This document shows positions 57,742 to 61,482 of a stretch of DNA of 64,000 bases, piece by piece (position 1 is the first letter of the stretch; each line of letters begins with the position of its first letter). The notes beneath the pieces are model-generated. The model was not told the DNA's origin. It searched no databases and was given only the letters and a program-made list of their open reading frames with translations. The DNA lies in NCBI GenBank assembly GCA_937916195.1, contig CALFTO010000008.1:4906-68905 (forward strand), written 5' to 3'. Source of the DNA: an uncultured Clostridia bacterium (GTDB lineage: Bacteria > Bacillota > Clostridia > Oscillospirales > Acutalibacteraceae). A program made the translations under genes and the position numbers.

Positions 57742-57843
57742 TTTAGCACCTCAAATTTCTATAAATAAATATATCATATCTTATTATTCTTTTCAACTTG
57801 AAACTTCCAATATTTTAGTATAGAATATTAAAAGGTGATAATT

Positions 57844-58368
57844 ATGGAAATCAATAGAATTCATTACAAGGTGTTAAGTGAACCGCAAAAAATCTATTTG
57901 GATATGCCAACTGTCAAAATTCGTGAAAAATTAAATGTTGCTTTCAAAAGTCCTACGGCAGAAGAGGATATGACAGGAATTTTCGGCAAATTTTCAAAGC
58001 TTGAAAAACTTTATAAGGTGAAATATATTCATTCGCGAAATAATCAGTTGCAACCGCAGACGTTTGACAGATATTATTATTTACTTGATATTGGTGAAGA
58101 TGAAAAGGGTGCATATATTGAATATGCAATGGTTTATGACAAGCTTTATGACCCGCTTATAAGAATAGTTTATGTTATTGCCGTGTGTGCGGTGCTTGCT
58201 TATCTTTATTATTTATATTCGCAAAAAGCAATGCAATCTTTTTCAGCAATCACTCTTGGCGTGATTGTAACGGCATCTGTAGCTCTTGTGTTCAAAAAAT
58301 CAAAGGAAAATAAAGAAGAATGCAAAAAAGCTGAAGAATTATTGAAAAAACTTATTATAGAACTGTAA
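57844..58368 (+). CDS. hypothetical membrane protein (two C-terminal TM segments)
   Basis: ORF with AAAGGTG RBS and TM IVYVIAVCAVLAYLYYLY / AITLGVIVTASVALVF. No family recognised. Confidence 0.55.
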   Translation: MEINRIHYKVLSEPQKIYLDMPTVKIREKLNVAFKSPTAEEDMTGIFGKFSKLEKLYKVKYIHSRNNQLQPQTFDRYYYLLDIGEDEKGAYIEYAMVYDKLYDPLIRIVYVIAVCAVLAYLYYLYSQKAMQSFSAITLGVIVTASVALVFKKSKENKEECKKAEELLKKLIIEL

Positions 58369-58446
58369 TTTGGGTTGACAAATTCATTTATATATTGTAT
58401 CATACTACCGTATTAACGCTTTACTATGTTAAAAGGAGCTATAATT

Positions 58447-59241
58447 ATGAAAATGAAAAAAATTCTTGCTGTCGTAATGGCAGTGCTTATGATGACCCTC
58501 TGCTTTGCAGGTTGTGGCGGAAATGAAGCTAAAATCGTTGTTGCTGAAGCAGGCTCAGCAGGTGAAACTGTTATGAATGCTGACGCATATTTTACCGACT
58601 ATGAGAAAATTCCTGTAGACTCACAGGCAAAGACACTTGTTGAGGTAAAATCTGGAACTGCCGATGCGGCTGTTATTGACTATGTAATGACAATCGGTTC
58701 AATCGGTGAGGGCACTGATTACGCTGACCTTAAGGTTGTTGAAGATGTTTCTTTCAATCCTGAGCAGTATGGTGTTGCTTTCAGAAAAGGCTCAGATGCT
58801 GTTTATTATGTAAATCAGGCAATGACAGACCTTAAAGCTGACGGCACACTTAATACTATTGCAACTAAATATAAGCTTCAGGATTTACTTGTTGTTGAAG
58901 ACAAATTTGAAAAACCTGAGGTTGCAGAGTCAGATTGGGAGTATATTAAGAATAAAGGTGAAATGATTATTGGCATCACTCTTTTTGCCCCAATGAACTA
59001 TGAAGTTGATGGCAAGCTTACAGGTTTTGAAACAGAGTTTGCTGAGGCTGTTTGTGCAAAACTTGGTGTTAAAGCTAAATTCCAAGTAATTGATTGGAAC
59101 TCAAAAGAAACCGAGCTTGCAAGTAAGAATATTGATTGTATCTGGAACGGTATGACAATTACTGAAGAAAGAGCAGAAAATATGGCAATTACTATTCCTT
59201 ATATGGAAAATAAGCAGGTTGTAGTTGTTAAAGCTGACTAG
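58447..59241 (+). CDS. amino-acid ABC transporter substrate-binding lipoprotein, apparently circularly permuted
   Basis: Lipobox LCFAGCGG. Family-3 SBP signature GFETEFAEAVCAKL lies at residues 193-206 of 264 instead of near the N-terminus. The C-lobe/KY-end segment (SGTADAAVIDY...EQYGVAFRKGSD...LKADGTLNTIATKY) comes first. Confidence 0.8.
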   Translation: MKMKKILAVVMAVLMMTLCFAGCGGNEAKIVVAEAGSAGETVMNADAYFTDYEKIPVDSQAKTLVEVKSGTADAAVIDYVMTIGSIGEGTDYADLKVVEDVSFNPEQYGVAFRKGSDAVYYVNQAMTDLKADGTLNTIATKYKLQDLLVVEDKFEKPEVAESDWEYIKNKGEMIIGITLFAPMNYEVDGKLTGFETEFAEAVCAKLGVKAKFQVIDWNSKETELASKNIDCIWNGMTITEERAENMAITIPYMENKQVVVVKAD

Positions 59242-59258
59242 TTTTAGGAGTTTATTTG

Positions 59259-59903
59259 ATGTCTTTTGTTGAAATAAGTTTTGATTTACTTCAAAGCTTT
59301 GCTGAAAATTGTGAGCTATTTGTGTTCACACTGTTATTTTCTTTGCCGTTGGGTTTGATTATTTCAATAGGCTCAATGTCAAAGATCAAAATTATAAAGT
59401 ACATAACAAAAGCATTTGTCTGGGTCATCAGAGGTACGCCTCTGATGCTCCAGCTTTTTGTGGTCTTTTATATTCCGGGACTTGTATTTGGAGTGCCAAT
59501 GAAATCCCGTATGTCTGCTGCTTTGATTGCTTTTGTTATAAATTATGCCGCCTATTTTTCAGAAATTTACAGAGGCGGAATTGAGTCTATTCCCAAAGGG
59601 CAGTATGAAGCAGGTCAAGTACTTGGAATGACAAAATCACAGATATTCTTCAAAGTTGTTTTGATGCAAGTTGTAAAAAGAATTATTGCTCCTATGAGTA
59701 ATGAAATTATAACGCTTGTGAAAGATACTTCGCTTGCGCGTGTAATTGCAATTTCAGAAATTCTGATGACTGCAACGGAATATACTGCAGAAGGTCTAAT
59801 CTGGCCGTTGTTCTATACCGGACTTTATTTCCTTGCATTCTGTGGCGGACTTACATTATTGTTTAATTTTATTGAAAAGAAATTTGATTATTATCGGAGT
59901 TAA
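59259..59903 (+). CDS. amino-acid ABC transporter permease (His/Glu/Gln/Arg/opine family)
   Basis: VIRGTPLMLQLF...YFSEIYRGGIESIPKGQYEAGQVLGM EAA loop. AGGAG RBS before ATG 59259. Confidence 0.9.
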   Translation: MSFVEISFDLLQSFAENCELFVFTLLFSLPLGLIISIGSMSKIKIIKYITKAFVWVIRGTPLMLQLFVVFYIPGLVFGVPMKSRMSAALIAFVINYAAYFSEIYRGGIESIPKGQYEAGQVLGMTKSQIFFKVVLMQVVKRIIAPMSNEIITLVKDTSLARVIAISEILMTATEYTAEGLIWPLFYTGLYFLAFCGGLTLLFNFIEKKFDYYRS

Positions 59904-59908
59904 AAATT

Positions 59909-60682
59909 ATGTCTATATTACAAGTAGAAAATATTAAAAAAAGCTTCGGTAATAACGAAGTTTTAAAGGACATCAGCTTTTCACTTGAGAAAGGCGAGGT
60001 GTTGTCAATTATTGGCTCATCTGGTAGTGGTAAGACTACACTTTTGCGATGCCTTAACTTCCTTGAAACTGCTGAATTCGGTAAAATCTATGTTGATGGT
60101 GAAATGCTTGTAGATTTTGAGACGGATTTGAATGAAAAAGATGCACAGCTTCGCAGAAAAAGACTTAATTTTGGATTGGTGTTTCAATCCTTTAATCTGT
60201 TTCCACAGTACAGCATTTTAAAAAATCTTACTTTGGCTGTTCAGCTTCTTGAAAATGTTAAGAAAAAAGATAAAGAAAAGATTAAAGATATTGACGACCG
60301 CGCAATAGAATTACTCAAAAGGGTAGGGCTTGAAGATAAGGTCAACGCTTATCCCTGTGAGCTTTCAGGAGGTCAGCAACAGCGTGTTGCAATTGCACGT
60401 GCATTAATGCTTTCGCCGAAAATCCTTTGCTTTGATGAGCCTACAAGCGCCCTTGACCCCGAGCTTACCGGCGAAGTGCTTCGAGTAATCCGCGAGCTTC
60501 GTGACGGTAATACTACAATGATTATTGTTACACACGAAATGAATTTTGCAAAGAATGTTTCTGACAAAGTTATTTTTATGGCAGACGGCATTATCGAAGA
60601 AATGGGCACACCCGCAGAACTTTTTGAAAATCCACAAAGTCAAAGACTTAAAGATTTCTTAAGTTCTTCATTAAAAGATTAG
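59909..60682 (+). CDS. amino-acid ABC transporter ATP-binding protein
   Basis: GSSGSGKTT, LSGGQQQRVAIARAL, ILCFDEPTSALD, VTHEM. Confidence 0.93.
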   Translation: MSILQVENIKKSFGNNEVLKDISFSLEKGEVLSIIGSSGSGKTTLLRCLNFLETAEFGKIYVDGEMLVDFETDLNEKDAQLRRKRLNFGLVFQSFNLFPQYSILKNLTLAVQLLENVKKKDKEKIKDIDDRAIELLKRVGLEDKVNAYPCELSGGQQQRVAIARALMLSPKILCFDEPTSALDPELTGEVLRVIRELRDGNTTMIIVTHEMNFAKNVSDKVIFMADGIIEEMGTPAELFENPQSQRLKDFLSSSLKD

Positions 60683-60685
60683 ATT

Positions 60686-60716
60686 AAATCCTCTGTTTAT
60701 GCAGAGGATTTTTCTT
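60686..60716 (+). terminator. rho-independent terminator after the ABC operon
   Basis: AAATCCTCTG-loop-CAGAGGATTT, then TTTC. Confidence 0.75.
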
Positions 60717-60759
60717 GTATTAAGCATTAATTTATGGTATTATGTATTTGGTGATAATT

Positions 60760-61482
60760 ATGAAAAAAATAGTTTCTTTATTTTTAACATTATTAATGTT
60801 ATTATCTTTGTTTTCAATTTCAGTTTTTGCTGAATCTAAGGCAAAGCTTTCACTCACAAGTGAAACTGTTTATGCGGGTGCAGAGTTTAAGCTTAACCTT
60901 TTTATAAGTGATAACTCAAAAATGAGTGGCGCGGTAATTGATATTAATTACGATAAGAATTTGCTTGAATTTGTGTCGGCAGAGCAGGGTGCAATCCTTG
61001 ATAAATCGGCTAATGTAAGCATAAAAAATATTGATGGTGACAAGGCAAAAGTTAGATTTACATATCTCGCACCCAATTCTTCCGTTACGTCAGAGGGTGT
61101 AATTATGTCAATTACATTTAAAGCACTCGCCAATTCAACGGGCAATACTGATTTAACCATCACAATTCCGAATGCCGCAGATTTTGTAACTCAGGATTTA
61201 GAAAATATTTCCTATGAAGTAAGTAATTCTGTTGTGAAAATAATAAATAAAACATATGAAGAACAGAGTGAAGATGAAAGTTCTTCAACAACAGAAGATG
61301 CATCACAATCAACCTCTGAAGATACTCAATCAACCACAGAGCAAGAGAATGTTAACGGTGATAAAACTCAAAAAGATGATAAAAGTGATAACACATTAAT
61401 TATTGTTTTACTTGTAGTTGGTTTATTATTTATAACTGTTGGTGTTGTAATGCTTGTTCAGAGTAAAAAGAAAAAGGAATAA
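60760..61482 (+). CDS. cohesin-domain protein with Ser/Thr/Glu linker and C-terminal TM anchor
   Basis: Signal peptide. Cohesin-like beta-sandwich pattern KLSLTSETVYAGAEFKLNLFISDNSKMSGAVIDINYDKNLLEFVS...VRFTYLA...GVIMSITFKA. C-terminal LIIVLLVVGLLFITVGVVMLV + QSKKKKE. Confidence 0.7.
   Translation: MKKIVSLFLTLLMLLSLFSISVFAESKAKLSLTSETVYAGAEFKLNLFISDNSKMSGAVIDINYDKNLLEFVSAEQGAILDKSANVSIKNIDGDKAKVRFTYLAPNSSVTSEGVIMSITFKALANSTGNTDLTITIPNAADFVTQDLENISYEVSNSVVKIINKTYEEQSEDESSSTTEDASQSTSEDTQSTTEQENVNGDKTQKDDKSDNTLIIVLLVVGLLFITVGVVMLVQSKKKKE

Follow-up and report, generated by a model that had tools for sequence, protein, structure and literature searches.

The question raised by this locus is whether a family of amino acid-binding proteins whose chain topology has been treated as fixed also occurs in nature with its chain order rotated. 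The window, meaning here the whole 64,000-nucleotide stretch that was analysed (contig CALFTO010000008.1, positions 4,906 to 68,905 of the forward strand, from the uncultured Clostridia bacterium assembly GCA_937916195.1), encodes on its + strand, at 58447..59241, a substrate-binding lipoprotein of 264 amino acids (aa) plus stop. A first-pass annotation, made from the DNA letters, had described this protein as circularly permuted relative to canonical family-3 binding proteins. The latter, which include GlnBP, HisJ/LAO-BP, ArtJ, and the GlnPQ domains, are textbook models for ligand-induced closure, for docking to ATP-binding cassette (ABC) importers, and for biosensor design. The evidence assembled below indicates, with a probability of roughly 0.88, that the lipoprotein is an intact, conserved, and functional-looking circular permutant of a family-3 amino acid-binding lipoprotein in an ABC importer, with what are predicted to be the ordinary fold and binding site of the family.

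The permutation is most directly visible in alignments to proteins of solved structure, which are out of order. In a phmmer search of the PDB that returned 86 matching sequences at E ≤ 0.01, residues 162-262 of the query aligned with residues 12-114 of the Streptococcus thermophilus binding protein 3HV1 (E value for this stretch of 6e-20) and residues 25-149 with its residues 124-253. Likewise, residues 171-262 fell on residues 10-103 of AncQR (4ZV1; 3.5e-13) and residues 36-141 on its residues 125-229 (1.3e-7). Against a profile built from 20 canonical relatives, residues 29-150 matched positions 145-266 and residues 160-264 matched positions 26-131. The two pieces are complementary and sum to one binding domain, the length that the first-pass annotation had assigned to the protein. 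All elements of both lobes are present once, and only ~13 loop residues (profile positions 132-144), the normal connection between the first two strands of lobe 2, are missing. The Pfam family PF00497 (SBP_bac_3) is matched at 103.6 bits, compared with a cut-off of 26.4, with the match split over two stretches, and NCBIfam models place residues 155-260 on model positions 25-133. The only colinear match is to the fused SBD1-SBD2 tandem of GlnPQ (6H30), in which residues 64-257 align with chain positions 146-324 across the junction of the two domains. The family signature, G-F-E-T-E-F-A-E-A-V-C-A-K-L, is found at residues 193-206, where it had been placed. Canonical members run from N to C in an order that leaves both termini on lobe 1; here the order is rotated, with the termini inside lobe 2, and the lipoprotein is a topological variant of the PF00497/cluster F (type II) family and not a standard member. 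The first-pass annotation was accordingly right about the permutation, which is seen both with solved structures and with the canonical profile and is kept in hundreds of relatives, and the normal colinear order that it had weighed as the alternative is not observed.

The anatomy of the two pieces differs in part from what had been proposed. The first piece (residues 24-151, 58516..58899 on the + strand; canonical profile 145-266 and 3HV1 residues 124-253) is the old C-terminal segment, which takes in lobe 2 from its second strand on together with hinge 2 and the C-terminal portion of lobe 1, and which includes the old tail ending in KYKLQDLLVVE. The last piece (residues 162-264, 58930..59238, +; canonical profile 26-131 and 3HV1 residues 12-114) is the old N-terminal segment. 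It contains the N-terminal helix, the N-terminal portion of lobe 1 (where the GFETEF signature lies), hinge 1, and, as QVVVVKAD, the first lobe-2 strand. Between them lies the sequence DKFEKPEVAE (residues 152-161, 58900..58929, +), the sole stretch without a counterpart in canonical relatives and the most variable region in an alignment of 41 homologues; in the structural model described below, its pLDDT is ~87. The nature of this junction becomes clear from comparison with the closest canonical relative, a 274-aa protein from genome G026 that is 70% and 60% identical to the query in the two pieces. The G026 protein ends in KYKLQDYIVVE followed by its stop codon and its mature chain begins with CGAKTSDKTDWDYIADKGEMIIGIT (...TDWDYIADKGEMIIGIT), and the permuted junction reads KYKLQDLLVVE, then DKFEKPEVAE, then SDWEYIKNKGEMIIGIT. 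Thus, the junction retains the full canonical C-terminal tail and the old N-terminal helix, linked by ~10 new residues. Of the ~25-aa linker that had been claimed (27 residues as counted here), only DKFEKPEVAE is new; the remainder represents the old termini, with QDLLVVE from the C-terminal tail and SDWEYIKNKG from the N-terminal helix.

The first-pass annotation had also taken the two pieces to be the C-lobe and the N-lobe. The swapped order holds; the lobe assignment does not, since the cut falls inside lobe 2 according to an alignment with GlnBP in which residues 175-263 correspond to GlnBP residues 8-96, both spans being of 89 residues and hence taken as ungapped. In GlnBP (1GGG/1WDN), the large domain comprises residues 1-84 and 186-226 and the small domain residues 90-180. 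When the protein is mapped in this way, lobe 2 has its first strand in the C-terminal QVVVVKAD and its second in the N-terminal KIVVAEAGSAGE (KIVVAE). With these two strands at opposite ends of the chain, the cut lies within lobe 2 and not between the lobes.

Whether a chain so rearranged still closes into a binding protein was considered next to its predicted structure. An AlphaFold2 model of the monomer, computed with the alignment of 41 sequences, has a mean predicted local distance difference test score (pLDDT) of 89.9 and a predicted template modelling score (pTM) of 0.80, with pLDDT values of ~87-95 across the junction; the structure prediction proposed in the first-pass annotation closes confidently. 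In the model, the secondary-structure elements succeed one another as in canonical proteins but from a rotated starting point, and the chain is predicted to close as a two-lobed monomer fold. When compared to the PDB with Foldseek, ~85 residues of the model superpose on 3HV1, 4OHN, and 9E2B at a root-mean-square deviation of 1.0-1.4 Å; canonical homologues align over only this length because Foldseek is a sequential aligner. Full-length matches, with template modelling (TM) scores of 0.4-0.5, were to the phosphate-binding protein 4H1X, OpuAC (TM of 0.49), and HisG.

The binding site also appears to be the ordinary one of the family. In the ungapped alignment, F180, W217, G235, T237, and R242 fall on GlnBP F13, F50, G68, T70, and R75, which are ligand contacts in 1WDN, and all five are invariant or at least 90% conserved among the 41 homologues. 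In the other half of the protein, S37-A-G39 and D78 are conserved in the same alignment, and D78 (in DAAVIDY) probably corresponds to GlnBP D157, judging from the AncQR alignment. In GlnBP, G68, T70, R75, and D157 serve in binding the α-carboxylate and α-amino groups, and F13 and F50 are the aromatic positions.

The same chain order recurs in many relatives, as a search for orthologues, suggested in the first-pass annotation, revealed. At least 120 clusters at 90% identity are 61-97% identical to the query and cover 92-100% of it (nearly all 98-100%), with members of 258-276 aa and a sole outlier of 394 aa (P0009). All aligned members carry a lipobox and then ..IVVAE.GSAGE at their start and ...NKQV.VVK at their end. 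Among species-representative genomes, for which counts were taken from the best 80 loci, the order is found at 42. The genomes with these 42 loci are named Candidatus Fimenecus, Acutalibacteraceae, Ruminococcaceae, Ructibacterium, or simply Clostridia or Eubacteriales, and their sources, where named, are ruminant and other animal guts. These observations bear on the concern that a metagenome assembler collapsed or joined neighbouring or strain-variant binding-protein genes and so generated a false permuted open reading frame. Such a concern is not idle for a metagenome-assembled genome of 145 contigs, and real chimeras of this kind do occur among the relatives (P0009 in genome G002, P0178, and the adapter tail of P0162, all described below). 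However, exactly the same 264-aa sequence recurs in independent assemblies from NCBI, ENA, and Logan, on 2 contigs, the longest of 419 kb, and it belongs to a 90% cluster of 16 members. Moreover, identical boundaries in so many clusters and species genomes, a junction that contains no stop codon, intergenic remnant, or second signal peptide, and the signature of selection described next make an assembly artefact vanishingly improbable.

It could further be asked if two binding-protein genes, once adjacent or fused, have left behind a pseudogene whose product has lost its fold or function, a possibility that the first-pass annotation had itself put forward and for which the loss of the ~13 residues linking the two lobe-2 strands might be cited. 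In comparisons with 10 orthologues, the ratio of nonsynonymous to synonymous substitution rates (dN/dS) was 0.04-0.19 for the mature chain as a whole and 0.02-0.20 when each half was taken separately, and both halves are under strong purifying selection. The reading frame is intact in all orthologues, ligand-contact residues contributed by both halves are invariant, the structural model is confident, and the operon is conserved. In addition, its genome encodes no second close family-3 binding protein; in that genome, which is 90% complete, a single further member of family 3 could be detected, which is canonical and lies on a small contig. A decaying remnant is therefore extremely improbable, if marginally less so than an assembly error.

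Somewhat less remote is the prospect of a domain-swapped dimer or oligomer, in which the first piece would find its partner in the second piece of a neighbouring chain. Swapping is a known tendency of circular permutants and of 1.5-domain intermediates, the model was computed for a monomer only, and structures of the Thermotoga maritima arginine-binding protein (4PRS and 6SVF), which is a dimer swapped through its C-terminal helix, are among the sequence matches. Against this stand the confident monomer model, including its linker, and the very short lipid tether, which would hinder swapped dimers. Additionally, ~27 residues span the junction, compared with the 12-residue (GGS)4 linker that suffices in an engineered permutant of LAO-BP, cpLAO-BP (PMC5087393). 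Swapping is accordingly regarded as quite improbable and a closed, permuted monomer as the preferred description.

For such a monomer, the mature chain would begin at the second β-strand of lobe 2, ~5 residues past the lipidated Cys23, and would then follow hinge 2 into the C-terminal portion of lobe 1 and reach the ~10-residue linker that unites the old C- and N-termini. Beyond the linker it would form the N-terminal portion of lobe 1, cross hinge 1, and end on the first strand of lobe 2. The lipid-anchored binding protein would serve, together with the products of the two genes downstream, in a three-gene ABC importer of the polar amino acid type, in which an amino acid would be captured between the two lobes by Venus-flytrap closure of the usual kind and then delivered to the permease. 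The genomic setting is consistent with this role. The binding protein is encoded in one operon with a BPD_transp_1 permease and an ABC ATPase, as expected for the binding component of a polar amino acid transporter (PAAT)-type importer, and both genes are intact, as had been noted at first sight, with matches to PF00528 and PF00005. A permease and an ATPase follow the binding-protein gene in 38 of the 42 permuted loci, the other 4 being cut by contig ends, and a permease homolog is found downstream in every one of these loci that is not shortened by a contig end.

The permuted order of the window protein is one of several in its clade. A profile search of 1.84 billion representative sequences, with matches mapped onto the canonical profile, identified four complementary cut classes (A-D) among one-domain-length lipoproteins, each with the lipobox right before the first piece, alongside 75 canonical sequences. 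Class A, which includes the window's own family, comprises 131 sequences cut at ~129-145 on the canonical profile; its boundaries vary, in that positions 129-144 are N-terminal in P0126, C-terminal in P0170, and absent in the window protein. The other classes are smaller, with 10 sequences cut at hinge 2 (~203; class B), 8 cut at ~161-167 (class C), and 9 cut in the first hairpin of lobe 1 (~53; class D). In addition to the 42 class A loci, the best 80 species-genome loci include 10 of class B and 10 of class C. In a quick-search tree of 159 un-permuted sequences and 241 columns, the cut classes are scattered among canonical forms, and well-supported branches require at least 6, 6, 3, and 4 changes for classes A, B, C, and D, respectively. 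A single origin of class A is rejected by the approximately unbiased (AU) test, which disfavours one clade by a log-likelihood difference of 422 (p = 6e-49). Sequence comparison shows that permutation happened repeatedly in this clade of gut Clostridia and at four cut sites. The number of independent events is a lower bound, because the tree is a quick one on 241 columns and has many unresolved forks; the window's own clade (16 class A rows) itself sits in an unresolved fork with the canonical G026 protein.

A distant subfamily, represented by L017 4988-5866, L019 5599-6432, and L018 5297-6175, was also noted. Its proteins, of 278-293 aa, are ~30% identical, have a class A-like order (IKIGVQTNTTG ... 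GMTVTDER ... VQVVIVKEGG), and are encoded with their own permease and ATPase. Genome G009 has both this subfamily and a window-type permuted protein.

How the rotation arose can be addressed through the forms that surround it. Most probably, the permuted protein originated by tandem duplication and trimming: two binding domains would have been fused head to tail, a form that is common in the clade, after which the first copy would have lost its N-terminal part and the second its C-terminal part. The profile search ranks highest those proteins in which 2-8 binding domains are fused, among them P0121 with 8 domains (2001 aa), P0122 with 6, P0123 and P0124 with 5, and P0150 and P0186 with 2; the P0121 cluster was found on at least 17 contigs from JGI, Logan, and ENA. 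Such arrays are the kind of starting material that permutation by duplication would call for. It should be noted that P0121-P0125, which contain 3-8 head-to-tail family-3 domains in canonical register, in several cases have a hydrophobic stretch at the end. Each may represent the N-terminal array of a permease fusion, with the permease gene truncated where the contig stops. Permutation by duplication, as proposed in the first-pass annotation, is therefore plausible but circumstantial: the retention of both old termini, the fused arrays, and the colinear match across the GlnPQ domain junction speak for it, and no convincing intermediate was found.

Gene fission, reordering, and re-fusion, or recombination between two paralogous genes, could in principle have produced the same protein. 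Such routes draw some support from the lack of a true duplication intermediate, from the existence of recombinant or chimeric forms that join permuted and canonical sequence (P0009), and from the presence of canonical and permuted operons at the same locus in one genus, so that substrates for recombination are at hand. Yet the junction has the make-up seen in fused tandem domains, with exactly the old C-terminus, a short linker, and the N-terminus of the old mature chain; the clade is rich in fused arrays of 2-8 domains; and all four cut classes are complementary rotations of one domain, as would be given by windows on a tandem repeat. An origin by these other routes is thus considered unlikely, and duplication followed by trimming is retained as the working explanation.

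Several points weigh against the interpretation developed so far, that is, a permuted protein of ordinary fold that arose repeatedly by duplication. First, the Foldseek TM scores are only ~0.3-0.5, and a sequential aligner provides no test of the rotation. Second, given the many unresolved forks of the tree, the number of permutation events depends on the model and could be inflated by recombination between halves. Third, no genuine half-trimmed (1.5-domain) duplication intermediate was found among the relatives, in which only P0009 and P0178 have that shape.

Both of these candidates were rejected as chimeras whose tails come from other subfamilies. P0009 (394 aa; L005/L010 1486-2682, on contig C9 of G002) has a head that is 97% identical to an ordinary class A protein (P0021) and a tail that is 60-63% identical to G021-like canonical proteins, and its contig ends in a permease that is only 61% identical to that of the window. 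Contig C17 of the same genome (L022 2-541) begins with a different class A tail, followed by the usual permease and ATPase. P0009 arose either when two strains were misassembled into one sequence or by genuine recombination between the two types of operon found at this locus. P0178 switches to a tail that, by eye, is cystine binder-like. P0162 (343 aa) was set aside since its C-terminus, LLYTSPSPRDS, is a translated Nextera adapter and hence a read-through artefact, and P0141 has exact internal repeats that are likely to be an assembly artefact.

The locus itself provides a further view of how the permuted form is distributed. In four genomes of the same genus (G016, G009, G005, and G006), the permuted gene occupies the same locus, in the order pseudouridine synthase, 177-aa protein, binding protein, permease, ATPase, cohesin-domain protein, and flavin reductase-rubredoxin. 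In another genome of the genus, G021, a canonical binding protein of 267 aa is encoded at the very same locus (L023 5066-5866), with flanking genes that are 89-95% identical. This canonical protein is only 42-48% identical to the permuted protein, compared with 60-70% for the G026 protein, which comes from another family of the order. In-situ conversion of the genus' own canonical gene is therefore not supported; because G026 is closer than G021, the pattern points to a transporter operon that behaves as a replaceable cassette, with the permuted form introduced by cassette replacement rather than made in place from a G021-type gene.

The permuted lipoprotein can be placed among known systems by degrees of likeness. 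With the canonical polar amino acid-binding lipoproteins of Firmicutes and other members of family 3/cluster F (3HV1, 4OHN, AncQR 4ZV1, the T. maritima arginine-binding protein 4PRS, and GlnBP 1GGG/1WDN), it shares the sequence family, ligand-contact residues, predicted two-lobed fold, and operon partners, one permease and one ATPase. It differs from canonical forms in its rotated order, in having its termini inside lobe 2 instead of lobe 1, in the joining of the old termini by ~10 residues, and in the placement of its anchor ~5 residues from a lobe-2 strand, as opposed to a canonical median of ~16 residues to the first strand of lobe 1. Relative to GlnPQ of Lactococcus lactis (6H30), it corresponds to a one-domain-long window of the SBD1-SBD2 tandem; unlike GlnPQ, it amounts to one domain's worth of protein and is a free lipoprotein, not fused to a permease.

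Natural permutation has been described in other binding proteins. TpMglB-2 (Tp0684) of Treponema pallidum is a conserved natural permutant, classified as 'Type Ic/Cluster Bc', that keeps ligand binding and closure, and its topology was linked by its authors to membrane tethering (PMC4990184). It is, however, a sugar binder of type I/cluster B that is cut at another point and has a fourth hinge crossing in addition, and it has no sequence relation to family 3. Within the type II fold, CPSARST detected circular-permutation relations among the glycine-betaine binders OpuAC (2B4L) and ProX (1R9L, 1SW1), molybdate binders, and CysB (PMC2395249). These likewise represent natural permutation, but in other families that are mutually less than 24% identical and whose relation was found structurally only (PMC2395249), nor was repeated permutation at several sites reported for any one clade of close relatives in that set. 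Within family 3, permutants have been engineered, and they demonstrate that the fold can be permuted, with ~12 residues joining the old termini, and still bind its ligand. In cpLAO-BP, which is cut at the hinge and rejoined by (GGS)4, lysine binding is retained, although the affinity of the sensor is 36-fold lower than that of the free binding protein, a loss that its authors blame on the permutation and the fused fluorescent proteins (PMC5087393); a family-3 permutant engineered for Förster resonance energy transfer (FRET) sensors is attributed there to Okada et al. (2009, as cited in PMC5087393). The hinge cut of cpLAO-BP corresponds to natural class B, and the class A cut inside lobe 2 is not the engineered one. 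In contrast to cpLAO-BP, the natural forms are under purifying selection and reside in operons with a permease and an ATPase. No description of natural family-3 permutants was found by a full-text literature search, the coverage of which did not extend to subscription-only papers, and the recurrent topological plasticity of family 3 in this clade of Clostridia is apparently undescribed.

These comparisons bear on how family 3 is studied and annotated. The clade keeps the predicted fold, the binding site, and the operon as the start of the chain moves, in proteins that are up to 60-70% identical to canonical forms. Matched natural pairs, such as the window protein and the canonical G026 protein, could be used to examine the effects of topology on folding, hinge mechanics, affinity, and transport, and the natural cut sites could be used in sensor engineering. 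Further, the clade offers an unusually dense record of circular permutation, which probably arises from tandem-domain proteins. Domain annotation returns 'SBP_bac_3' only; as a result, annotation pipelines and structure-based classifications overlook the rearrangement.

A possible reason for such repeated re-cutting lies in the lipid anchor. From the lipidated cysteine to the first core strand, the median distance is ~16 residues in canonical proteins versus 4-8 residues in permuted ones, a rough estimate in which class A is dominated by one family. The short tether of permuted proteins leads to lobe 2, to the hinge, or to a lobe-1 hairpin, and the longer one of canonical proteins leads to lobe 1. 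It might be speculated that re-cutting was selected, and is not the outcome of neutral drift, for moving the anchor, which would fix the orientation and reach of the binding protein over the permease and tune delivery kinetics; class B, which keeps one hinge strand only, might have altered open-close dynamics as well. This suggestion is tentative and is more likely wrong than right. If it were true, the clade would constitute a natural library on how chain topology and tether geometry control ABC import.

Signals in the DNA around the gene are those of a compact operon, with a promoter-like site, the genes for binding protein, permease, and ATPase, and a terminator-like hairpin in line. The lipoprotein reading frame on the + strand can be opened at either of two ATG codons (58426/58447..59241). 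The ATG at 58447 is the likely start rather than the upstream ATG at 58426, because a Shine-Dalgarno sequence, AAGGAG, can be read at 58433..58438 (+), 8 nucleotides before it. From this start, the protein begins with MKMKK (MKMKKILAVVMAVLMMTLCFAGC...), and its first 23 residues (58447..58515, +) form a lipoprotein signal peptide with the lipobox FAGC that ends in Cys23. Cys23 is invariant among the 41 aligned homologues, and only ~5 residues separate it from the first core strand. A sigma-70-like promoter candidate, TTGACA-17-TATCAT, lies directly upstream at 58375..58403 (+) and, with 11 of 12 positions matched, is the top-scoring site of the scan, although it is a consensus match only and the scan gave 18 sites in the region compared with ~16 expected by chance. 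The ABC permease (215 aa; PF00528 at 68.6 bits) is encoded at 59256..59903 (+), with its likely start at ATG 59259, and the ABC ATPase (257 aa; PF00005 at 121.9 bits) at 59909..60682 (+). The three-gene operon ends with a terminator-like hairpin at 60686..60711 (+), which has an 11-pair stem and a T-rich tail.

The genes on either side of the operon were also inspected. Directly upstream, 57835-58368 (+) encodes a 177-aa protein with no Pfam match and, by eye, a hydrophobic stretch; its position is conserved, and it is 64-84% identical among close relatives, compared with 92-95% for the neighbouring pseudouridine synthase. Directly after the operon, 60742-61482 (+) encodes a protein of 246 aa that combines a signal peptide and a cohesin domain (PF00963, 57 bits) with a Ser/Thr-rich linker of acidic character and, at the C-terminus, a membrane anchor. 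This protein is conserved at the locus, with relatives that are 50-59% identical.

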